This document shows positions 6,362 through 24,566 of a stretch of 64,000 nt of DNA, one piece after another. A program made the position numbers and the translations under genes. The stretch is from Lysobacterales bacterium (GTDB lineage Bacteria; Pseudomonadota; Gammaproteobacteria; Xanthomonadales; Xanthomonadaceae), in contig JAEKKX010000005.1 in the NCBI GenBank assembly GCA_019510125.1, positions 46,009-110,008 on the forward strand, given 5' to 3'. Below the pieces are notes generated by a model. It had not been told where the DNA came from, ran no database searches, and saw only the letters and a list, made by a program, of their open reading frames with translations. How positions within the stretch are numbered: position 1 is the first letter of the stretch; each line of letters opens with the position of its first letter.

Positions 6362-6437
6362 GGGGCCATAGCTCAGCTGGGAGAGCGCCTGCATGGCATG
6401 CAGGAGGTCGCCGGTTCGATCCCGGCTGGCTCCACCA
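6362..6437 (+). tRNA. tRNA-Ala (anticodon GGC)
   Basis: A 76-nt cloverleaf was folded by hand. It has acceptor stem GGGGCCA/TGGCTCC with the G3:U70 alanine identity pair, anticodon loop ATGGCAT, a TTCGATC T-loop and an encoded CCA. Confidence 0.95.
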
Positions 6438-6485
6438 ACTTCCGAACCACCCAGGCCGGTTCGCGAAGGCACGAAGTTCCACGAC

Positions 6486-6561
6486 GTCCCCATCGTCTAG
6501 AGGCCTAGGACATTACCCTTTCACGGTAGCGACCGGGGTTCGAATCCCCGTGGGGACGCCA
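6486..6561 (+). tRNA. tRNA-Glu (anticodon TTC)
   Basis: A 76-nt cloverleaf with acceptor stem GTCCCCA/TGGGGAC, anticodon loop CTTTCAC, a TTCGAAT T-loop and an encoded CCA. Confidence 0.95.
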
Positions 6562-6995: not shown

Positions 6996-7493
6996 TCAGG
7001 CGATGCGCGACACCGTCATCTCGTCCACATCCCCCACCCGCACCAGCGTCCCCACGCCGTGCCCGCGCTCGGCGAGGTACTGCAGCCACTTGCCGAGGAA
7101 GGTGTTCATGCGCAGGCGGTGGTCGAGGACTTCGGCCGGCGGCGGGTGCAGGCCGATGGCGTCCTGCCAGCGGCGGCCGATGTAGCAGTGCGTGGCCTCG
7201 ACCAGTTTCGCGTCGCGGTACAGGCGCAGGAAGGCGGACGGGTCGGGTTCGCCGGTCACCGGGTCGAGCAGCGCGTAGCTGAGCCGGTATTCGACGGTGT
7301 AGGCGTGGCGCGCGATGACTTCCAGGTGGAGGTCGAGGCCGTCGCCGACCGAGGAGACGTAGCGGCCCGTCTCCAGGTCGGCCGGCGCGAACAGCCGGTG
7401 CAGGCGCTGGTGGTTTTCGGCGTACAGCGCCATCAACCACGAGAACCGGTTGATCTTCTGGGCTTCGACGGGGCGGGAGACGACGTGCGACAT
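6996..7493 (-). CDS. DUF1249 (YqiB-like) family protein
   Basis: These are the last 165 codons of the giant track ORF 6996..11033, starting at ATG 7493 (MSHVVSRPVEAQKINRFSWLMALYAENHQRLHRL...). The sequence resembles the DUF1249/YqiB family. The family call is from memory. Confidence 0.65.
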   Translation of the reverse strand: MSHVVSRPVEAQKINRFSWLMALYAENHQRLHRLFAPADLETGRYVSSVGDGLDLHLEVIARHAYTVEYRLSYALLDPVTGEPDPSAFLRLYRDAKLVEATHCYIGRRWQDAIGLHPPPAEVLDHRLRMNTFLGKWLQYLAERGHGVGTLVRVGDVDEMTVSRIA

Positions 7494-7600
7494 GGACGGA
7501 TCGTACACAGCGCGCCGCTTTCGCAACAGGATTGACGCCCGCGGCCGGCGACGGCGATGATGGACGGGCCCATCGCGCCGCGGTCCGCAACCGACCGCCG

Positions 7601-8422
7601 TCAGAACATCTCGCGCTGGATCCCCAACGTCGTCATCACCTTGCCCGCGATCTCCTCGATCGAGGTGTGGGTCGTGCTGAGCGTGGGGATGCGCTCGGCC
7701 CGCAGCATCGCCTCGGCCGCCGCCACCTCGCGCCGGCAGGTCTCGAGCTGGGCGTAGCGGGAGTTCGGCCGCCGCTCCTGGCGGATCTGGGCCAGCCGCT
7801 CGGGGTCGATGGTCAGCCCGAACAGCTTGCGCCGGTGCGCGCGCAGCCGCGGCGGCAGGCGGTCGTGCTCCAGGTCCTCGTCGGTCAGCGGGTAGTTGGC
7901 GGCGCGGACTCCGTGGTGCAGCGCCAGGTAGACGCAGGTCGGGGTCTTGCCGGCGCGCGAGACGGCGACCAGGATCACGTCCGCCTCGTCGTAGTTGGTG
8001 GCGATGCCGTCGTCGTGGGTCAAAGCGAAGTTCATCGCGTTGATCCGGCGGTGGTAGCTGTCGAAATTCACCAGGCCGTGGGCGTGGCCCACCCTCGACT
8101 GGCGCTGCTCGCCCAGTTCGCGCTCCAGCGGTTCGATGAACGGCTCGAACACGTCCAGCATCAGCGCCCCGCTCTCGGCCAGGGCCGCGGTGAGGCGGGC
8201 GTCGACGCAGGAATTGACCACGATCGGGCGGCTGCCGCTGGCCTCGCCGGCGGCGCGGATGCGCGCGGCGGCCTCGGCGGCCTTCTCCGGGGTGTCCACG
8301 AACGGGATCCGGTCGGTGCGGAACTGGGTGTCCGCGAACTGGGTCAGCAGGCTGTGGCCGATGGTTTCGGCGGTGATGCCGGTGCCGTCGGAGACGTAGA
8401 ACACCGGGCGGGCGAGGCTCAT
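7601..8422 (-). CDS. ppsR: Phosphoenolpyruvate synthase regulatory protein (bifunctional kinase/pyrophosphorylase, DUF299)
   Basis: Starts at ATG 8422 ([29 protein letters not shown]...). The P-loop-like [16 protein letters not shown] motif is present. It is divergently adjacent to ppsA, the canonical arrangement. Confidence 0.9.
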
Positions 8423-8528
8423 GCGGGCTCCGTGAGGCGTCGGAAGAAGGTCGGGGGGCGGCGCGGGAGCCGGTGTTGTTAAAATACCGCTTTCGCCGGC
8501 CCTCTGCCGCGCCCGTCCGGAGCCCCCC

Positions 8529-10904
<2,376 letters not shown>

Positions 10905-11011
10905 AGCGGCGCGGACGGACGGAACCGTCGCGGACGCGCGCGCATCGCGCGTTTCGCGGCGGAACCACCGCGTCCGGCGACGGTCCAACGACGCTCTGCT
11001 AGGGTAACGGC

Positions 11012-11881
11012 ATGTACGAACGCTGGATGGCATGGCTGGACAAGCGCGACTGGCTCGCGGTGATCAGCGACTGGGGCCTGCGCGCGCTCGGCGCGCTGCT
11101 GCTGCTGTATGTCGGCATCCGCCTGGCGCGGAAGGTCTCGCGGCTGGCCGAGAACGCGCTGCTGCGCGCCGAGGTGGACGTCACCGCGGCGATGTTCCTG
11201 CGCAAACTGGTCTATGTCGGCCTGCTGGTCGTGGTCGTGCTGGCGGTGCTGCAGGTGTTCAACGTGCCGGTCAGCTCCGCCTTCGCGGTGCTCGGCGCCG
11301 CCGGCCTGGCGATCGGCCTGGCGCTGAAGGATTCGCTGTCGAACGTGGCCTCGGGCGTCGGCCTGGTCACGCTCAAGCCGTTCCGGGTCGGCGACACGGT
11401 GACCATCTCCGGGATGACCGGCAAGGTCGAGGCGGTCAGCATCTTCCAGACCGTGCTGCGCGGCGCGGACAACCAGACGATCACGCTGCCGAACAGCCTC
11501 ATCACCACCGCGCCGATCGTCAACTTCACGCCCGGCAAGATGCGCCGGATCGAGCTGGTGATCGGCATCGACTACGGCGACGACATCGAGACCGCGCGCA
11601 AGGCCGCGCTGGACGTGATGCTCGCCGACGCGCGCGTGCTGCGCGATCCGCCGCCGGACGTGCTGGTGTATGCGCTCGCCGACAGCAGCGTCAACCTCGG
11701 CATCCGCTGCCACGTCGCCAACGACGACTATTTCCAGACCAAGTGCGAGCTGCTGGAACGGATCAAGCGCGCCTTCGACGACGGCGGGATCAACATCCCG
11801 TACCCGCAGCAGGACATGCACCTGTTCGTGCGCGGCGCGGACGGCGAGCGCGTGGAAGTGGGCAAGGCGCTGGCGCGCTAG
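11012..11881 (+). CDS. Small-conductance mechanosensitive channel (MscS family)
   Basis: A 289-aa ORF with three N-terminal TM helices followed by the conserved MscS beta-domain motif PFRVGDTVTISGMTGKVEAVSIFQTVL. Confidence 0.85.
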   Translation: MYERWMAWLDKRDWLAVISDWGLRALGALLLLYVGIRLARKVSRLAENALLRAEVDVTAAMFLRKLVYVGLLVVVVLAVLQVFNVPVSSAFAVLGAAGLAIGLALKDSLSNVASGVGLVTLKPFRVGDTVTISGMTGKVEAVSIFQTVLRGADNQTITLPNSLITTAPIVNFTPGKMRRIELVIGIDYGDDIETARKAALDVMLADARVLRDPPPDVLVYALADSSVNLGIRCHVANDDYFQTKCELLERIKRAFDDGGINIPYPQQDMHLFVRGADGERVEVGKALAR

Positions 11882-12553: not shown

Positions 12554-13015
12554 ATGGCGCTGTCCATCCCGACCGACCACCACACCATCCTGACCGCGAT
12601 GCTGGCGCCGGCCCTGCTCATGGCCGCCACCGGCTCGCTGCTGGTGTCGGCCAACGCGCGACTGGCGCGGGTGGTCGACCGGCTGCGTTCCCTGATCGTG
12701 GCCTGGGAACAGGACGCGCCGGACCGCAACGAGCGCGACACCCAGATCAGCCGCCATCGCCATCGCGCCGCGCTGGTGCTGCACGCCTGCCGGCTGCTGT
12801 ACGCCGCCCTCGCCTGCTTCATCGGCACCAGCCTCGCGCTCGCCGCCGATGCGCTGCTCGGTTTTCCCATCGTCGGCGCGGTGCCGACGGTGCTGGCGGT
12901 GCTCGGCATGCTCTGCCTGCTCGGCGCCAGCCTCAACATGGGCCGCGAGGTCGGGCTGTCGGTAAAGAGCTTCGACGAGGAACTCGACCACGAACTGGCG
13001 CGCCGGCGCGGCTGA
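12554..13015 (+). CDS. DUF2721-like small membrane protein
   Basis: A 153-aa ORF with three hydrophobic segments separated by an amphipathic Arg-rich helix. The family assignment is from memory of similar proteins. Confidence 0.55.
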   Translation: MALSIPTDHHTILTAMLAPALLMAATGSLLVSANARLARVVDRLRSLIVAWEQDAPDRNERDTQISRHRHRAALVLHACRLLYAALACFIGTSLALAADALLGFPIVGAVPTVLAVLGMLCLLGASLNMGREVGLSVKSFDEELDHELARRRG

Positions 13016-13262: not shown

Positions 13263-13892
<630 letters not shown>

Positions 13893-13980: not shown

Positions 13981-16900
13981 ATGACCGCACCGACCGATCC
14001 GTCCATCGCCACCGCCGGCGAGAGCACGCACACGCCCGTCCGCCTGCCGCCGACGCTGCCGCCGGAGCCCTGCTGCTGCGACGGCGACCCGATCGAAGGC
14101 CTCAAGCAGCTCTTCGTCGACTACTTCCAGGGCCGCGGCATGGCCGCCGGCCGCGACCCGGCGACGCGGCCGGTGTTCCTGCGCCTGCACGGCGTCGCCC
14201 ACGGCCGGTTCGTGGTCGATCCGGACCTGCCGCCGGCGCTGCGCGTGGGCGTGTTCGGGCAGCAGGCCGAGTACCCGGCCTGGGTCCGGTTTTCGTCCGA
14301 CCTCCAGCCGGGCGCGCCCGACCTCAAGGGCACCTGCGGCATCGGCATCAAGCTGTTCGGCGTGAAAGGCGAAAAACTGCTGGCGCCCGACGAGGCCGCG
14401 GTCACCCACGATTTCATCCTGCAGAACCACGACGTGTTCTTCGTCGACACCGCGCAGGACATGTGCGAATTCACCTGCGCCTCGCTGCACGGCAAGGGCG
14501 ACGCCTACCTGGCGGCGCATCCGGTCACCCGGCAGGTGCTGGACGCGATGGAGAAGGTCGTCGATTCGGTGCTGGCCACGCCGTACTGGAGCGTGCTGCC
14601 GTACCGCTTCGGCGACGCGCGCTACGTCAAGTACAAACTCGAGCCGCTGGACGCGCCGCCGGCGGAAGCCGCGCCGGACTTCGACGACCCGTTCTACCTG
14701 CGCGCCGACCTGCACGCGCGGCTGCGCAAGGGCGTGGCCCGGTTCCGCTTCCTCGCCCAGTTCCGCACCGACGAGGCGACGATGCCGCTCGACGCCGCGA
14801 CCGTGCGCTGGGACGAGGACGCCAGCCCGCCGGTCGCACTGGGCATTCTCGAACTGCCGCTGCAGGACCTCGACGCCCGCGGCCAGTCCGCCTACGGCGA
14901 GAATCTCGCCTGGAACCCGTGGCACGCGCTGCCCGAGCATGCGCCGGTCGGCAGCCTGTCGGACGCGCGCAAGGTCGTCTATCGCGCCTCGGCCGCGAAC
15001 CGCCGCAACGTCAACGGCGTCGCACAGGGCGAACCGGCGGCGCCGCGCCCGGCGGAGTACGCCCCGGGCGTGCCCTACCCGGCGGCGAAGGACACCCGCA
15101 TCGTCCGCGCCGCGATCCACCCGGCGATCGGCATCGCCCGCGTCGGCGACAGCCGCGACGACTTCTTCATCGGTCCGCAGGTGACGACGCCGCCGTGCGC
15201 GCCGGAGGGCTTCTATCGCGACGCCACCGGCGCGCTGAAGCGCGAGGCCGCCGAGTTCCGGATCTACGGCTACAACGCGGCCGGTGAGGTGGTCCGCGAA
15301 CTCACCGCCGACTGGGCCGACATCGCCTGGACCGTCCACCTCGCCAACCGCAAGGCGGCCTGGTACCAGTGGCAGATCGCGATGGACATCCCCGAGGCGG
15401 CGAGCACCGTGCTGCCGCTGCGCAACGCGAAGGTCAAGGATCGAGACAGCCTGGTGATCGACGCCGGCCCGCAGCGGATCGCCGGGCGCGGCGCGGCGCC
15501 GGTGGTCTGCGGCGGGACGTTCACCGACGTGCCGGTGACGCTCGGCGAACTGCGCACCGACGCCAGCGGCCGGCTGCTGGTGCTGGGCGGCCACGGGGTC
15601 TCGGCCTCGCCGACCGGCGCCCCGATCTACATCCCGACCGACGGCAACTCCTTCATCAACGCCGACGGCTGGTACGACGACACCTGCGACGGCACGGTGG
15701 ACGCCAGCGTGACGATCGAGGGCCGCGCGATCCCGGTCGCATCGGCCTGGGTGGTGACCGCGCCGCCGAACTACGCGCCGCAGGTCAAGGCCGAGCGCAC
15801 GATGTACGACCTGCTCCACGATCTCTACGTGCAGGCCGGGTGGCTGCCGGCACCGGCGACGGTGTCGTTCGCCGAGGACGTGTATCCGATCCTGCAGCGG
15901 CTCACCGGCCTGCAGTGGGTGAACCAGGGCTTCGCCACCCAGTTCGGCCACGGCGGGCAGTACGACTTCGAGTCGCCGGCGCTGATCGCCCGCCTCTGCG
16001 CGCTGCCGCCGCCGGGCGAATACGATCCGAACGCGGAATTCCGCCGCCAGGTGTTCAACAGCTTCCGCCCGCCGAATCCGCCCGACGGCAACCAGATGCC
16101 GTGGCCGTGGCTGTACGGCGACGCGATGGAAGTGCCCGCCGGCGAGAGCCCGCGCCAGAACGCCGCGATCACCGCCACCCAGTGGACGGTCCTGCAGCGC
16201 TGGGCGAACGGCGATTTCGTGCCCGACTGGGACCCCGCCCGCAAACCGCCCACGTCGATCGACGCGGTGCCGCTGGCGCGGCAGCCGGCGATGCTCGACC
16301 GCGCCGCGCTCGACTACTGCCTCGCCGACGCCTTCCATCCGGGCTGCGAGATGACCTGGCCGATGCGGCACCTGACCCTGTACGACGCGCCGTTCCGCAT
16401 CCGCCGCCGCCCGGCCGGCACCCCGGAGCCCGATTACGGCGCGACCCTCGACCAGGCCACCGCGCTGTCGCCTGGCGGCCCGCTGTACGCGCAGGGGCCC
16501 GGCGACATCAACCGCTGGATGGGCCTGCCATGGCAGGCGGACACGGCCTACTGCCGCGCCGGGTACGACCCCGACTACGATCCGTTCGCGCCGACGTTCT
16601 GGCCCGCGCGCGTGCCCAACCACGTGCTCACCGACGACGACTACCGCATCGTCGTCGACCCCGCGCAGCCGCGGGCGCGACGGATCGAAGCCTTCGTCAA
16701 TCGCACGAGCTGGAACAAGCCGCTGCACGGCAGGACCGCCGAACAGATGCTGCAGATGGTCCGGATCTTCGGCTCGATGGGGCTGCTGGAGGTGCGCGAC
16801 GGCGTCCACGAAGACCCGGCGTTCCCGACGACGATGCTGGTCGCCTCGTACGGGCCGGACGTGGCGCCGGCCGACGCCGGCAGCATGAGCGAGGCCGCGC

Positions 16901-17043
16901 GCGCGCAGCCGATGCTGAAGGCGGCGGTCGCGGACGACGCGCATCCGAAACTGCGCAAGCTGCCGCGCGGCGCGAACTTCGCAAGCCGCGAGGAGGCCGA
17001 CGCCGCGCCGCTGCCGGTGCGTCGCGGCAAGCCGCACGACTGA
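13981..17043 (+). CDS. Fusion protein: N-terminal catalase-related (y4iL-like) heme-type domain plus C-terminal LodA/GoxA-family CTQ-dependent amine/amino-acid oxidase domain (1020 aa)
   Basis: ATG 13981 is preceded by AGGGGA. Residues about 45-345 carry RLHGVAHG, LRVGVF, YPAWVRFSS, GIGIKLFGVKGEKLL, HDFILQNHDVFFV and ARKVVYRASAANRR (Tyr334). Residues about 371-1020 carry IHPAIGIARVGDS, HPGCEMTW (Cys789, nt 16345) and GLPWQADTAYC (Trp851, nt 16531). The first 159 codons of track ORF 13504..17043 overlap tadA and are discarded. Confidence 0.8.
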   Translation: MTAPTDPSIATAGESTHTPVRLPPTLPPEPCCCDGDPIEGLKQLFVDYFQGRGMAAGRDPATRPVFLRLHGVAHGRFVVDPDLPPALRVGVFGQQAEYPAWVRFSSDLQPGAPDLKGTCGIGIKLFGVKGEKLLAPDEAAVTHDFILQNHDVFFVDTAQDMCEFTCASLHGKGDAYLAAHPVTRQVLDAMEKVVDSVLATPYWSVLPYRFGDARYVKYKLEPLDAPPAEAAPDFDDPFYLRADLHARLRKGVARFRFLAQFRTDEATMPLDAATVRWDEDASPPVALGILELPLQDLDARGQSAYGENLAWNPWHALPEHAPVGSLSDARKVVYRASAANRRNVNGVAQGEPAAPRPAEYAPGVPYPAAKDTRIVRAAIHPAIGIARVGDSRDDFFIGPQVTTPPCAPEGFYRDATGALKREAAEFRIYGYNAAGEVVRELTADWADIAWTVHLANRKAAWYQWQIAMDIPEAASTVLPLRNAKVKDRDSLVIDAGPQRIAGRGAAPVVCGGTFTDVPVTLGELRTDASGRLLVLGGHGVSASPTGAPIYIPTDGNSFINADGWYDDTCDGTVDASVTIEGRAIPVASAWVVTAPPNYAPQVKAERTMYDLLHDLYVQAGWLPAPATVSFAEDVYPILQRLTGLQWVNQGFATQFGHGGQYDFESPALIARLCALPPPGEYDPNAEFRRQVFNSFRPPNPPDGNQMPWPWLYGDAMEVPAGESPRQNAAITATQWTVLQRWANGDFVPDWDPARKPPTSIDAVPLARQPAMLDRAALDYCLADAFHPGCEMTWPMRHLTLYDAPFRIRRRPAGTPEPDYGATLDQATALSPGGPLYAQGPGDINRWMGLPWQADTAYCRAGYDPDYDPFAPTFWPARVPNHVLTDDDYRIVVDPAQPRARRIEAFVNRTSWNKPLHGRTAEQMLQMVRIFGSMGLLEVRDGVHEDPAFPTTMLVASYGPDVAPADAGSMSEAARAQPMLKAAVADDAHPKLRKLPRGANFASREEADAAPLPVRRGKPHD

Positions 17044-17050
17044 GGCCGGC

Positions 17051-18166
17051 ATGCGGCCGGGCGACGTCGATGTCGTGATCGCCGGCGGTGGCCCTGCGGG
17101 CGCCGCCGCCGGCCTCGCGCTCGCCCGCGCGGGCCTGCGCGTGCGCCTGTGCGAGCACGACCCCGCGCGCCCGTTCCGGGTGGGCGAAGGCCTGCCGCCG
17201 TCGGCACGCTCGCTGCTGCGCGATCTGGGCGTGCTCGAACGCCTGTCCGCCGACGGGCATCGCCCCAGCCCCGGCACCCTGGCGTTCTGGGGCGGCGACG
17301 CCGCGCATGCGGAGAACACGCTGTTCGGCGTCGGCGGCCACGGTTGGCAGCTCGATCGCGTCCGCTTCGACGCGATGCTGCGCGATGCTGCCGCCGCGGC
17401 CGGCGCGGACGTGCGCCGCGCGACGCTGCGGCTCGATGCCGCCGGCGATGCCCGCACGCCGCATCTGGTGTTCGCTCGCGACGGACACGGCATCGAAACG
17501 CGCTTCGAGGCGCGCTGGCTGATCGACGCCAGCGGCCGCGCGGCGACGTTCGCGCGCGCCATGGGCGCCGCGCGGATCGCGCACGACCGCCTGTTCGCCC
17601 TGCACCAGCGCCTGCACGGCGGCGCCGCGAGCGATCGCGACGGCCGCACCTGGGTCGAGTCGGTCGAGGACGGCTGGTGGTACAGCGTGCTGCTGCCGTC
17701 TGGCGAGCGCCTGGTCGCCTTCCTCTGCGACGCGGATGCGGTCACGCGCCGACGCCTGCTCGGCGATCACGGCCTGTGGCGCCACCTCGCCCGCGCGCCC
17801 CGGCTCCATGCCCTGTGCAGGGCGCACGCGTGGAGGCCGCACGGGCGCGCGCTCGGCGCCGAGGCGTCGAGCGCGGAACTCGATCCCGTCGCCGGCGAAC
17901 GCTGGCTGGCGGTCGGCGATGCCGCCCTCGCCTTCGACCCGCTGTCGTCGAAGGGCATCGCCAGCGCGCTCTACACCGGCCTGCGCGCCGCGGACGCGAT
18001 CCTCGCCTGCGATCGCGGCGACGCCGCCGCGACCGGCGCCTATGCGCGGCACCTGCACGACATCCATCGCGTCTATCGCGAACAACTGCGCGCCTTCCAC
18101 GCGATGGAAACGCGCTGGCCGCACGCGCCTTTCTGGCAGCGACGGCGAACCGCCGCGGTGGCTTGA
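17051..18166 (+). CDS. LodB/GoxB-type FAD-dependent flavoprotein (tryptophan-halogenase/geranylgeranyl-reductase-like fold), predicted CTQ-maturation partner
   Basis: A 371-aa ORF starting 7 nt after the upstream stop. It has the Rossmann motif DVVIAGGGPAGAAAGLALARAG and the later motif WLAVGDAALAFDPLSSKGI. Its size and position match the lodA-lodB operon layout. Confidence 0.75.
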   Translation: MRPGDVDVVIAGGGPAGAAAGLALARAGLRVRLCEHDPARPFRVGEGLPPSARSLLRDLGVLERLSADGHRPSPGTLAFWGGDAAHAENTLFGVGGHGWQLDRVRFDAMLRDAAAAAGADVRRATLRLDAAGDARTPHLVFARDGHGIETRFEARWLIDASGRAATFARAMGAARIAHDRLFALHQRLHGGAASDRDGRTWVESVEDGWWYSVLLPSGERLVAFLCDADAVTRRRLLGDHGLWRHLARAPRLHALCRAHAWRPHGRALGAEASSAELDPVAGERWLAVGDAALAFDPLSSKGIASALYTGLRAADAILACDRGDAAATGAYARHLHDIHRVYREQLRAFHAMETRWPHAPFWQRRRTAAVA

Positions 18167-18206: not shown

Positions 18207-18584
18207 TTAGACCCGACCGGCCGCCTCCAGCGCCGCGAACTCGTCGTCGCCGAACAGCCGCGAGCGCACCAGGAAGCGCACGCCCTCGCCGTTCTCCAGC
18301 GAAAACATGCCGCCGCGGCCCTCGACCACGTCGATGACCAGTTGGGTGTGCTTCCAGTACTCGAACTGCGGCCGGCTGATGTAGAACGGCGCGCCGCCGA
18401 TCTCGCCAAGCTGCACGTCCTGGTCGCCGACGATGAAGTCGTCCTGCGGGAAGCACATCGGCGACGACCCGTCGCAGCAGCCGCCGGACTGGTGAAACAG
18501 CACCGGCCCGTGGCGGGCGCGCAGCTTGTCGATCAGCGCGAGCGCCGGCAGGGTCGCGATGACCTGCAGCGGAACATCGGGCAT
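18207..18584 (-). CDS. DUF779 family protein
   Basis: A 125-aa ORF with HQSGGCCDGSSPMCF. It lies immediately downstream of the aldehyde dehydrogenase, as is usual for DUF779. Confidence 0.8.
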   Translation of the reverse strand: MPDVPLQVIATLPALALIDKLRARHGPVLFHQSGGCCDGSSPMCFPQDDFIVGDQDVQLGEIGGAPFYISRPQFEYWKHTQLVIDVVEGRGGMFSLENGEGVRFLVRSRLFGDDEFAALEAAGRV

Positions 18585-18668: not shown

Positions 18669-20192
<1,524 letters not shown>

Positions 20193-20228
20193 TGAGGGGC
20201 TCCGGGGAGGGGTGGTGCGCCCAATGGC

Positions 20229-20243
20229 GCAAGGCCGGTGCCA
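20229..20243 (-). promoter_or_regulatory. Sigma-54 (-24/-12) promoter of the aldehyde dehydrogenase-DUF779 operon
   Basis: The minus strand reads TGGCAC-CGGCC-TTGC, a perfect TGGCAC-N5-TTGC match. It lies about 37 nt upstream of ATG 20192, with a sigma-54 activator gene divergent. Confidence 0.8.
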
Positions 20244-20299
20244 ACTTCCCGGTGCTGCGCCGCAGCAACGACGAATGCGCGTGCTGGCGCGGAGTTGCG

Positions 20300-20318
20300 G
20301 CGTTGCATGTTGCAACGC
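20300..20318. promoter_or_regulatory. Perfect inverted repeat, candidate enhancer (UAS) for the AcoR-like activator
   Basis: GCGTTGCA-TGT-TGCAACGC lies about 60-90 nt upstream of the sigma-54 promoter, in the divergent intergenic region. Confidence 0.45.
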
Positions 20319-20411
20319 ACAACAAGCGGCGCTTGCGCGACGCGGCGACGTGTGCTGTTTATCGGAACAGCCGCCGCCGCGACTGTCGCAGAATGCGACA
20401 CAGGAGCCGCC

Positions 20412-22310
20412 ATGACCCGCCCGCGCCCCGCCGACGAACTTGCCCATGCCCGCCGTGCGTTCTTCGAGCGCGGCAACCCGGTCGGCGTCGGCGAACTGCC
20501 GCAGACGATCCTGCGCTCGTGGCAGCGCTGTCGCCGCCTCGGCCTGCCGGAGCGCGACACCCCGTCGATCGAACCGGTCCCGGAAAGCCGGCTGCACGAG
20601 ATGCGCGAGCGCAACGAGCGCCTGCGCCGCCTGGCGCGCGCCGAACTCGAACTGCTCGCCGCCGACGCCGACGGCAGCGGCAGCATCGTGGTGCTGACCG
20701 ACGACACCGGCTGGATCCTCGACGCCACCGGACACCCGCAGTTCCTCGACAAGGCCAGCCGCGTCGCGCTGCGGCCCGGCGCGTGCTGGAACGAGGCGCA
20801 GGCCGGGACCAACGCGATCGGGACCGCGATCGTCGAACGTCGCGCGGTCGAGGTGCGCGGCGGCGAGCACTACCGCGCGCCGCACGGCATCCTCACCTGC
20901 ACCGCGACGCCGATCCACGATCCCTACGGCCAGCTCGTCGGCGTGCTCGACATCAGCGGCGACGCCCGCGCCCAGCACCTGCACGCGCTGGGGCTGGTGC
21001 GCATGGCGGTGGCGAACATCGAGCACCGGTTCTTCGAAGGCGGCCTCGACGGCTGCGAACTGCTGCGGCTGCAGCGCGACCCCGCCCTGCTCGGCTCGAC
21101 GCGCGAAGGCCTGCTCGCCTTCCGCAACGGCACGCTGGTGGCGGCCAACCAGGCCGGGCTGGCGCTGGCCGGCATCACCCGCGACGACCTCGGCCGCGTC
21201 GCCTATGAGCTGCTGTTCGACGAGCCGCTGTCGCGGCTGCGCAGCGAGGGCGCGCTGCGCGACCGCTGCGGCCGCGCGCTGTACGGCCGCATCGACGGCG
21301 CGCCGGCGCGCGTGCAGATCGCGCTGCCGCCCGCACGCACGGGCGAACCGCGGCCACGCACCGCGGCGCCGCGCCCGCCGGTGGACGACGGCCCGTTCTT
21401 CGACGCCGCCTGCGCCACCGCGCTGGCGCGCGCGCGCCGGGTGATCGACGCCGGCCTGCCGGTGTTGGTGCAGGGCGAGACCGGCAGCGGCAAGGAAGTG
21501 TTCGCGCGCGCCCTGCACGCGCGCTCGGCGCGCGCCGGCAAACCGTTCGTCGCGGTGAACTGCGCCGCGCTGCCGGAAGGCCTGATCGAAGCGGAACTGT
21601 TCGGCTACGAGGAAGGCGCCTTCACCGGCGCGCGCCGCCACGGCAGCCCGGGCCTGCTCCGCCAGGCGCAGGGCGGCGTGCTGTTCCTCGACGAGATCGG
21701 CGACATGCCGCTGGCCCTGCAGCCGCGCCTGCTGCGGGTGCTGCAGGAGCGCGAGTCGTCGCCGCTGGGCGGCGGCAAGCCGGTGAAGCTCGACTTCGAC
21801 CTGGTCTGCGCCACCCACTGCGATCTCGACGCCGCGGTCGAGGCCGGCCGCTTCCGCGCCGACCTCTATTACCGCATCGCCCACCACCGGGTGCGGCTGG
21901 CGCCGCTGCGCGAATCGGCCGAACGGGGCGACATCGTCGACGCGCTGTGGCGACGGGTCGCCGCCGGGCGCACGCTGTCCGCGGACGCGCGCGCCGCGCT
22001 GGCCGGGCATCGCTGGCCCGGCAACCTGCGCCAGCTCGACGCCTGCCTGCGCACGCTGGTCGCACTGAGCGATCCCGGCGACTGCGTCGGCATGGACGCC
22101 CTGCCCGTCGAGCTCCAGGCGACGGCCGGGACGCCCGCCGCGCCAGCGCCGCGCGCCGGCGGCATCGCCCCGCTGGAGACGCTGGAGGAAACGGCCATGC
22201 GCGATGCGCTGGCCGCCTGCGCCGGCAACGTCGCGCGCGCCGCGCGCCTGCTGGGGGTCAATCGCAGCACCCTGTACCGCCGCGTCGGACGCCCCAAACG
22301 GGCGTCGTGA
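20412..22310 (+). CDS. Sigma-54-dependent transcriptional activator (AcoR/Fis family: GAF-like sensor, AAA+, HTH)
   Basis: ATG 20412 is preceded by AGGAG. The AAA+ motifs are [30 protein letters not shown] and the C-terminal HTH is [19 protein letters not shown]. Confidence 0.9.

Positions 22311-22970: not shown

Positions 22971-24566
<1,596 letters not shown>

Follow-up and report, generated by a model that had tools for sequence, protein, structure and literature searches.

A predicted haem module with a remodelled catalase-type pocket is fused to a LodA/GoxA-like quinoprotein oxidase in a Lysobacterales bacterium

What does a catalase-like haem domain do when it is fused to an oxidase whose relatives release hydrogen peroxide? 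This question is raised by a locus in contig JAEKKX010000005.1 of a Lysobacterales bacterium (assembly GCA_019510125.1, positions 46,009 to 110,008), a stretch of 64,000 nucleotides (nt) that was analyzed as a whole and that we refer to as the window. A first-pass annotation of this DNA had described a gene in which a catalase-related domain is joined to an oxidase of the LodA/GoxA type, enzymes that use the cofactor cysteine tryptophylquinone (CTQ), with a gene for a LodB-type flavoprotein downstream. We found the identity and architecture of this two-gene system to be close to certain: the locus appears to encode a cytoplasm-type CTQ quinoprotein oxidase system of the group III LodA/GoxA-like clade. 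It is a further copy of an architecture that is already in the literature. LodA and GoxA release H2O2 (PMC4417212; also a 2026 preprint).

The gene model is well supported. The fusion protein of 1020 amino acids (aa) is encoded by one uninterrupted open reading frame (ORF), as had been annotated. Its start codon is ATG with GGGGAAG just 5' of it, and the closest relative, a 91% identical homologue from a Lysobacteraceae metagenome-assembled genome, aligns from residue 1 over the whole protein. Public metagenomes hold an identical 1020-aa protein (P0121). A longer, GTG-started frame was rejected; it would overlap the divergent TadA-like gene and is supported by no homologue. The gene for the 371-aa flavin adenine dinucleotide (FAD) protein starts 7 nt past the stop codon of the fusion gene, in the lodA-lodB layout already recognized, and the two genes are a real two-gene operon. 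No signal peptide is apparent at the N terminus of the fusion protein, in agreement with the earlier description, as judged by eye and with no predictor. All of the motifs quoted in that description are present in the translation, including three consecutive cysteines at residues 31 to 33 (codons 14071-14079). Cys33 is found in 156 of 163 relatives, stand-alone ones included, within the motif D-C-x-x-D-P, and Cys31 is conserved only among the aligned fused homologues, within P-C-x-C-D-x-D-P.

Residues 380 to 874 are a LodA/GoxA-family CTQ oxidase, as first proposed. The Pfam model LodA_N (PF17990) matched residues 380 to 592 (E value 1.7e-78; 263.9 bits against a gathering cutoff of 26.3), and LodA_C (PF18417) matched residues 722 to 874 (E value 3.7e-39; 134.3 bits against a cutoff of 25). 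The NCBIfam equivalog models for GoxA (NF038173) and for LodA, or lysine 6-oxidase (NF038172), scored 411.6 and 169.2 bits, which is under their respective cutoffs of 750 and 600; thus, the protein is a member of the LodA/GoxA family and is neither of the characterized enzymes. A sequence search of the oxidase half against the PDB returned Pseudoalteromonas luteoviolacea GoxA (PlGoxA) and LodA as the only solved relatives. An AlphaFold model of the full-length protein (mean predicted local distance difference test score [pLDDT] of 80.7; predicted template modeling score [pTM] of 0.77) gave the same picture in Foldseek, with E values of 4e-30 for PlGoxA (6BYW) and ~1e-25 for LodA (3WEU and 2YMW).

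Which residues form the cofactor had been misassigned. Cys516 and Trp581, the CTQ residues of LodA, are conserved in all LodA-like proteins (PMC4417212), and the first-pass annotation had taken Cys789 and Trp851 as their counterparts, with a spacing of 62 residues against 65 in LodA cited in support. Alignment to the solved structures contradicts this. The motif F-H786-P-G-C789-E-M-T-W aligns with F-H583-P-G-V-E-L-T-W of PlGoxA, which places Cys789 opposite a valine in a working CTQ enzyme and opposite Ile451 in LodA; Trp851 aligns with LodA Trp509. Instead, the stretch W851-Q-A-D854-T-A-Y-C858 aligns with W-Q-S-D678-A-A-S-C of PlGoxA and with a LodA stretch ending at residue 516/517. The partner tryptophan was read from LodA itself by way of two LodA-group orthologues (L082, from Tenacibaculum, and L083), taken from contigs that carry short LodA-like fragments. 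Used as a query against the PDB, the Tenacibaculum protein returned residues 438 to 725 of Marinomonas mediterranea LodA (3WEU) with their numbering, and the following landmarks were read: P-M-C448-P-G, P-W509-Q-A-D512-F-F-N-C516, K530, and Y-W580-W581-P-P-Q-S-P. In a four-way alignment of the window protein, PlGoxA, and the two orthologues, the Asp, the Cys, and the Trp of [FW]-W-P/A-x-x-x-P-x-x-V-L are invariant. These alignments equate Cys858 with LodA Cys516, Trp874 with Trp581, and Asp854 with Asp512, and none of the three varies among LodA-group, GoxA, and group III sequences. The true gap from Cys to Trp is thus 16 residues, compared to 65 in LodA, a difference due to 49 residues that are inserted between the two in LodA; the similarity of 62 and 65 was a coincidence.

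Other routes to the tryptophan were less informative. No PDB match was obtained with the C-terminal region as a single sequence or with a profile of residues 884 to 965, and the alignment of a profile of residues 765 to 965 stopped at about residue 898. Trp911, toward which spacing arguments had leaned at an early stage, was ruled out by the actual LodA-group sequences. In the full-length model, the loops that hold CTQ-region residues (782 to 788 and 861 to 877) are of low confidence, which is expected because the cross-link is not modeled. As side observations on these sources, the LodA orthologue of Tenacibaculum sp. nBUS_03 (L082:4001-6134) is split by a frameshift into ORFs of 146 and 575 aa, and in Marinomonas shanghaiensis a LodA-like gene is reduced to a 214-aa N-terminal fragment (L081:5001-5645).

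Beyond the cofactor residues, His786 and Phe558 match His583 and Phe316 of PlGoxA, whereas LodA has Cys448 opposite His786; these two predicted active-site residues are thus GoxA-like. The downstream partner is a LodB/GoxB-type flavoprotein. NCBIfam models for GoxB, LodB, and QhpG scored 234, 224, and 183 bits, respectively, over its full length (residues 7 to 365), all below the equivalog cutoffs (400 bits for LodB and GoxB), so that the similarity is at the level of the family only; Pfam matches were to FAD_binding_3 and Trp_halogenase. Where related loci extend far enough downstream, a lodB-like homologue almost always lies 3' of the oxidase gene. By homology with LodA, GoxA, and QhpG, the flavoprotein would hydroxylate Trp874, which would then be cross-linked to Cys858 and oxidized to CTQ with the assistance of Asp854. 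By the same homology, the mature oxidase would deaminate a primary amine or amino acid through a CTQ Schiff base, with Asp854 as the base, to give an aldehyde and NH3, and O2 would then reoxidize the CTQ to yield H2O2.

The N-terminal part had been annotated as a catalase-related, haem-type domain. In a Pfam search, the N-terminal 370 aa alone matched nothing, Catalase (PF00199) included, even at an E value of ≤10. Because Pfam was silent on this region, a family profile and structure prediction were needed. PF00199 matched only 8 of 27 relatives, and weakly (best E value 0.0014). A 27-sequence profile of the family matched the PDB entries for MAP_2744c of Mycobacterium avium subsp. paratuberculosis (3E4W; E value 5.9e-10 over 285 residues), a catalase (4QOL; 7.8e-5), and coral allene oxide synthase (1U5U; 1.1e-4). 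Structure prediction agreed. When the haem domain was modeled with AlphaFold (pLDDT 88.2; pTM 0.87) and the model searched in Foldseek, its best matches were 3E4Y and 3E4W (E value ~1e-15; TM score of 0.57 normalized by the query and 0.69 by the target), followed by catalases; there were 183 PDB matches at an E value of ≤0.001, and all of the 50 listed are 3E4W/3E4Y or catalases. Residues ~34 to 346 are thus predicted to adopt a catalase fold for which MAP_2744c is the closest solved structure, and the original domain assignment holds. The domain is a core of the mini-catalase type in which the C-terminal domains of catalases are absent. It is connected to the oxidase by a linker at which stand-alone homologues stop and unfused LodA-like proteins begin ('..DTRIVRAAIHPAIG'), and pLDDT in the full-length model falls to 62 to 68 across residues 341 to 370. 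The family is large: a search of 1.84 billion representatives returned 5097 relatives at an E value of ≤1e-3, 3255 at ≤1e-10, and 1339 at ≤1e-30.

If the domain has the fold of a catalase, does it also have the active site of one? We placed it in the register of human catalase by hhalign of the family profile, with the human sequence entered by hand and not from a database record; the register at Phe66 was corroborated by HMMER alignments to 3E4W and 4QOL and by distant relatives. On the proximal side, Arg330, Tyr334, and Arg341 pair with human Arg354, Tyr358, and Arg365, and the proximal tyrosine named in the first-pass annotation is thereby upheld. The propionate arginines Arg63, Arg103, and Arg341, which lie elsewhere in the domain than the proximal motif, are retained (Arg63 and Arg103 pair with human Arg72 and Arg112) and are at least 99% conserved among relatives. 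On the distal side, Val65 pairs with Val74, Phe153 and Phe154 with Phe153 and Phe154, and Met161 with Phe161. Here, however, Phe66 occupies the position of the distal histidine, His75, and Gln148 that of Asn148. The catalase distal dyad of His and Asn would accordingly be gone, replaced by Phe66 and Gln148; the haem-binding side is, by the same alignments, intact. The Tyr and His ligands looked for at the outset thus fared differently, in that Tyr334 is kept and the distal His is lost.

Residue conservation, counted over up to 181 relatives, indicates that this substitution is not peculiar to the window. Arg63 is found in 176/176 sequences, Phe66 in 178/178, His70 in 178/178, Gln148 in 180/181, Arg330 in 170/170, and Tyr334 in 169/169, and Val65, Phe66, Gln148, Asn149, Phe153, Phe154, Met161, and Cys162 show little or no variation within the clade. 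Among the best 150 relatives, the higher-scoring ones, including all of the listed LodA-like fusions, have Phe66, Gln148, Met161, and Cys162, whereas those below ~290 bits mostly read R-x-x-His66-x-Lys-x-His70-Gly and usually have a hydrophobic residue at position 148. Since distant relatives have a histidine at column 66, this column is the canonical distal-His position. The histidines of the motif RLHGVAHG (His70 and His74) had been highlighted previously; the motif is present, but neither is the distal His of catalase. His70 as a shifted distal histidine was rejected, given that almost every one of the distant relatives listed carries it together with the canonical His66. Cys162 lies beside Met161 in the predicted distal pocket. 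In the LodA-linked clade, then, the distal pocket is, as read from these alignments, remodelled and under strong conservation, that is, under purifying selection.

These residues bear directly on the simplest explanation, that the haem domain is a classical catalase which protects its own oxidase by dismutating 2 H2O2 to O2 and 2 H2O through the standard His/Asn mechanism. The catalase fold and the retained proximal Tyr/Arg and propionate arginines are what such an enzyme would have; some databases name relatives "catalase," and the 2026 preprint proposes detoxification. Yet the distal His position is Phe and the distal Asn position is Gln in essentially every member of the clade, the Pfam Catalase model does not match, and the nearest solved structure is catalase-related rather than a catalase proper. 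That protein, MAP_2744c, is reportedly a peroxidase with little catalase activity. Because invariant Phe66 and Gln148 replace the distal His and Asn, the domain is probably no classical catalase, and we regard classical self-protection as unlikely. The earlier suggestion that the haem domain destroys H2O2 is weakened to the extent that it was catalase-like.

How tightly is this haem protein tied to the oxidase? A single scan of species-representative genomes yielded 80 related loci from 80 species, in which the fusion is present 52 times, including in Lysobacteraceae, Aquimonas, Dyella, Cupriavidus, Acidovorax/Paracidovorax, Nannocystis, Hyalangium, Gemmataceae, Acidobacteriota, Longimicrobium, and Bacteroidota. 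In the other 28, whose oxidases are 60 to 76% identical, no haem-domain homologue was found within up to 8 kb on each side (less on short contigs), and these oxidases keep all of the CTQ residues and lodB. On a neighbor-joining tree of 83 oxidase domains, the presence or absence of the haem module requires at least nine changes. Stand-alone haem-domain homologues (~340 aa) complete the picture: each of the six that were examined forms a compact cluster of three with a lodA-like and a lodB-like gene. The order is cat-lodA-lodB in Rudanella, Moorena, Flavobacterium, and Pseudoruegeria, lodB-cat-lodA on one metagenome contig (L088), and lodA-cat-lodB in an Actinomycetota genome. The haem-domain clade is therefore a dedicated partner of LodA-like oxidases, either fused or adjacent, and the coexistence of fused, split, and missing forms identifies it as a dedicated but optional third component. 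An association of fusion with a cytoplasmic location and of the unfused state with secretion was considered and rejected, as neither form has signal peptides, with one exception resembling a twin-arginine translocation signal.

Several side observations concern how these genes travel. On L088 (1-7883), the lodB-cat-lodA cluster lies a few kilobases from relaxase and MobC/NikA-like genes, which suggests a mobilizable element, and a tblastn search of a plasmid collection returned 171 records (Rhizobium, Agrobacterium, Ralstonia, and others), which fits horizontal spread. Ralstonia solanacearum megaplasmids carry the fusion gene, with 59% identity to the window protein; it has no feature in most of the corresponding PLSDB gene tables (H1-H15) and is "catalase" in one, so that its annotation in this pathogen of plants is inconsistent.

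The distribution speaks to a second possibility, in which the haem reacts with H2O2 to give a high-valent iron species, and this species finishes or repairs CTQ on the attached oxidase. There is precedent in the dihaem protein MauG, which completes tryptophan tryptophylquinone in methylamine dehydrogenase, and Tyr-ligated haem stabilizes high-valent states in MauG and in catalases. The strict association of the module with a tryptophylquinone enzyme and its maturase, whatever the gene order, would be natural for a maturation factor, as would the presence of a related Phe66/Gln148 protein near a gene for a RoxA-like dihaem cytochrome c. However, the module is dispensable, because close relatives lack it; oxidases without it retain the CTQ residues and lodB, so it is not generally required for biogenesis, and LodA and GoxA mature with only LodB or GoxB (PMC11951088). 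A role in CTQ biogenesis is ranked lower for this reason, and we find it improbable.

The same conservation counts help to weigh a third possibility, namely, that the catalase-fold domain turns over no peroxide and serves as an oligomerization scaffold, a haem sensor, or a regulator of the oxidase. Catalase cores are strong oligomerization modules, and the catalytic distal residues have indeed been lost. The haem-binding residues and the whole pocket set are nonetheless invariant or nearly so, which argues for a functional haem pocket, and a noncatalytic role is in our judgment distinctly improbable. Still less credible is an electron transfer scheme in which the haem takes electrons from reduced CTQ and O2 is not the acceptor, as in quinohaemoprotein amine dehydrogenase, where c-type haems accept electrons. 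CTQ and haem would here be combined in one polypeptide, and the full-length pTM of 0.77 suggests a defined arrangement of the domains. Against it, catalase-type haems with a tyrosinate ligand are of very low potential and remain ferric, no further electron transfer partner is conserved in the neighborhood, and unfused relatives would have to use another acceptor. The very low potential ranks simple electron transfer lowest, and we consider it highly improbable.

The scheme that we favor starts from the N-terminal 346 residues of the fusion protein, whose predicted catalase-fold domain should bind haem b through Tyr334, with Arg330, Arg63, Arg103, and Arg341 expected to support the ligand and the haem propionates. 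With the distal His and Asn gone, a specialized peroxide-consuming site is favored over a classical catalase; judging from the pocket residues, the site is more likely peroxidatic or peroxygenase-like, or a slow, nonclassical dismutase. From its association with the oxidase, the module may intercept H2O2 from the CTQ site in cis, so that little free peroxide would leave the enzyme. Whether the haem module intercepts peroxide produced at the CTQ site is, in our estimate, evenly balanced. A peroxide context is supported by more distant family members (P0335-P0411), which keep the canonical distal His and are fused, at either the C or the N terminus, to DyP-type peroxidase, RoxA-like dihaem cytochrome c, patatin phospholipase, or polyketide-cyclase-like domains; those joined to DyP-type peroxidases and RoxA-like cytochromes c are the ones in point. 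The small catalase-fold module seems to have been joined repeatedly to other oxidative enzymes. A more specific version holds that the module is no catalase and that H2O2 from the CTQ site serves as a second oxidant, which would either reoxidize reduced CTQ or oxidize the aldehyde or imine product. If so, O2 would be fully reduced to water and no peroxide would be released by the holoenzyme, and the enzyme would represent a quinohaemoprotein oxidase of a new kind, with a net chemistry unlike that of LodA or GoxA. We put this version forward tentatively and regard it as doubtful.

Several points weigh against interception. We infer haem binding, CTQ formation, the substrate, and the handling of H2O2 alike. 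Without the distal His and Asn, the formation of compound I from H2O2 is normally crippled, so that peroxide chemistry would need another acid-base group. Module-free relatives likewise have no signal peptides, and hence there is no difference in localization to back a self-protective function. Lastly, one stand-alone homologue, P0323 (L090:2596-6089), has Phe66 and Gln148 together with Phe161 and Leu162 and is not beside a lodA-like gene; a RoxA-like cytochrome c is encoded two genes upstream of it, and only ~400 bp of DNA downstream of it was examined. Its context suggests that the remodelled pocket may not be strictly LodA specific.

The surroundings of the operon add little to this picture. 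Coordinates of all features are collected in Table 1. The convergent DUF779 gene and the aldehyde dehydrogenase gene that follow the operon were considered as components of the system and rejected: they have their own sigma-54 activator, and they are found beside lodAB again only in the loci that most resemble the window (L001-L017 and L060). In Acidovorax/Paracidovorax and related Comamonadaceae, a different aldehyde dehydrogenase gene lies 2 to 3.5 kb upstream of the lodA-like gene, with other genes in between. It is worth recording that an aldehyde dehydrogenase gene adjoins that of a presumed aldehyde-producing oxidase, yet it is not counted into the system. ORF clustering over the 80 loci revealed no conserved third gene, only lineage-specific synteny, and a scan for promoters and terminators yielded nothing informative. 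The G+C content of the window is ~70%, and a 1345-aa ORF at 6996-11033 (minus strand) is mostly a spurious high-G+C frame, with a DUF1249 match only at its C-terminal end.

Table 1. Positions in the window of the fusion gene, its predicted domains and key residues, the partner gene, and neighboring genes
Feature	Position	Strand	Evidence
Fusion gene, 1020 aa (catalase-fold haem domain plus group III LodA/GoxA-like CTQ oxidase)	13981..17043	+	ORF, translation
Predicted catalase-fold haem domain, residues ~34-346	14080..15018	+	Family profile, AlphaFold, Foldseek
Phe66 codon, at catalase distal His position (human His75)	14176..14178	+	hhalign, HMMER alignments
His70 codon, near-invariant family-wide, aligns to human Ala79	14188..14190	+	hhalign, conservation
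Gln148 codon, at catalase distal Asn148 position	14422..14424	+	hhalign
Arg330...Tyr334, proximal haem-ligand motif R-x-x-x-Y	14968..14982	+	hhalign, conservation
Interdomain linker, residues 347-376	15019..15108	+	Homologue ends/starts, pLDDT
LodA_N domain, residues 380-592, including Phe558 (PlGoxA Phe316)	15118..15756	+	Pfam PF17990, PDB alignment
LodA_C domain, residues 722-874, with FH786PGC789E motif, Asp854, Cys858, and Trp874	16144..16602	+	Pfam PF18417, PlGoxA/LodA alignments
CTQ-forming segment	16540..16602	+	Asp854 16540-16542, Cys858 16552-16554, Trp874 16600-16602; codons verified
LodB/GoxB-type FAD monooxygenase, putative CTQ maturase, 371 aa	17051..18166	+	NCBIfam, Pfam
Tandem tRNA-Ala(GGC) and tRNA-Glu(TTC) genes	within 6362-6561
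MscS-like gene	11012-11881
DUF2721 gene	12554-13015
TadA-like deaminase gene, divergent from fusion gene	13263-13817	-
DUF779 gene, convergent, directly downstream of lodB-like gene	18207-18584
Aldehyde dehydrogenase gene, next after DUF779 gene	~18669-20200
Sigma-54/GAF activator gene, divergent	20238-22310
GuaA gene	22971-24566

LodA/GoxA-type quinoproteins have been studied as antimicrobial generators of H2O2, as enzymes for biosensors, and as model systems for protein-derived cofactors, and to our knowledge only lysine and glycine oxidases have been characterized among them. In M. mediterranea, the group III paralogue reportedly oxidizes neither lysine nor glycine. Group III enzymes with the haem domain are widely distributed, with at least 52 species in our scan in addition to the R. 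solanacearum megaplasmids, and they span Lysobacteraceae, Comamonadaceae, Myxococcota, Planctomycetota, Acidobacteriota, and Bacteroidota. The dedicated haem partner, the remodelled and conserved pocket, and the corrected Cys858/Trp874 pair give a concrete basis for experiments, which could reveal a "silent" amine oxidase or a new haem-quinone chemistry.

The first-pass annotation had known of no characterized member with this architecture. The architecture itself has been described before: Campillo-Brocal et al. in 2015 listed 21 fusions of a pfam00199/CD08152 domain to a LodA-like protein, in group III, and reported the cd08152 (y4iL-like) match for them (BMC Genomics 16:231, PMC4417212, Table 3), and the architecture was noted once more in a preprint of July 2026 that proposed H2O2 detoxification. 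The statement on characterized members stands, in that our literature search found no biochemical work on fusions of a catalase domain to a LodA-like protein. Found in neither the 2015 survey nor the 2026 preprint are the split three-gene form, the Phe66/Gln148 pocket with its contrast to His-bearing relatives, and the residue-level CTQ assignment for the group III fusion clade.

Comparison with known systems places the window protein among enzymes that each share part of its design. GoxA (PlGoxA, 6BYW; M. mediterranea GoxA) shares the D-x3-C...W CTQ motif, His786 (His583), Phe558 (Phe316), and a GoxB-like partner, and PlGoxA is the best match of the oxidase half in both structure and sequence; identity in the structural alignment is nonetheless only ~22%, and PlGoxA has no haem domain. 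LodA (M. mediterranea; 2YMW and 3WEU) belongs to the same family, with its Cys516, Trp581, and Asp512 in place of Cys858, Trp874, and Asp854 and a LodB maturase gene downstream, but it differs in the insertion between the CTQ Cys and Trp, in Cys448 at the position of His786, and in having no haem domain. On the haem side, MAP_2744c (33 kDa; 3E4W and 3E4Y) is likewise a minimal catalase core (~320 aa) and has a proximal Tyr; unlike the window domain, it keeps the distal histidine in R-x-x-H, and it stands alone, with no link to a quinoprotein. The coral allene oxide synthase-lipoxygenase (1U5U and 3DY5) has a catalase-related haem domain of weak profile similarity N-terminal to a peroxide-making oxygenase; there, however, the module is paired with a lipoxygenase and acts on a fatty acid hydroperoxide. 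The coral allene oxide synthase keeps the distal His. Closest of all are the group III fusions listed in 2015, which have the same architecture, a size of 963 to 1072 aa compared to 1020 here, and a lodB-like gene that follows. One entry in that list, from Cupriavidus sp. UYPR2.512 (locus L014), is 75 to 76% identical to the window protein over its full length, and the megaplasmid protein of R. solanacearum Po82 is 59% identical. Nothing essential sets the window protein apart from these fusions, and it is another member of their group.

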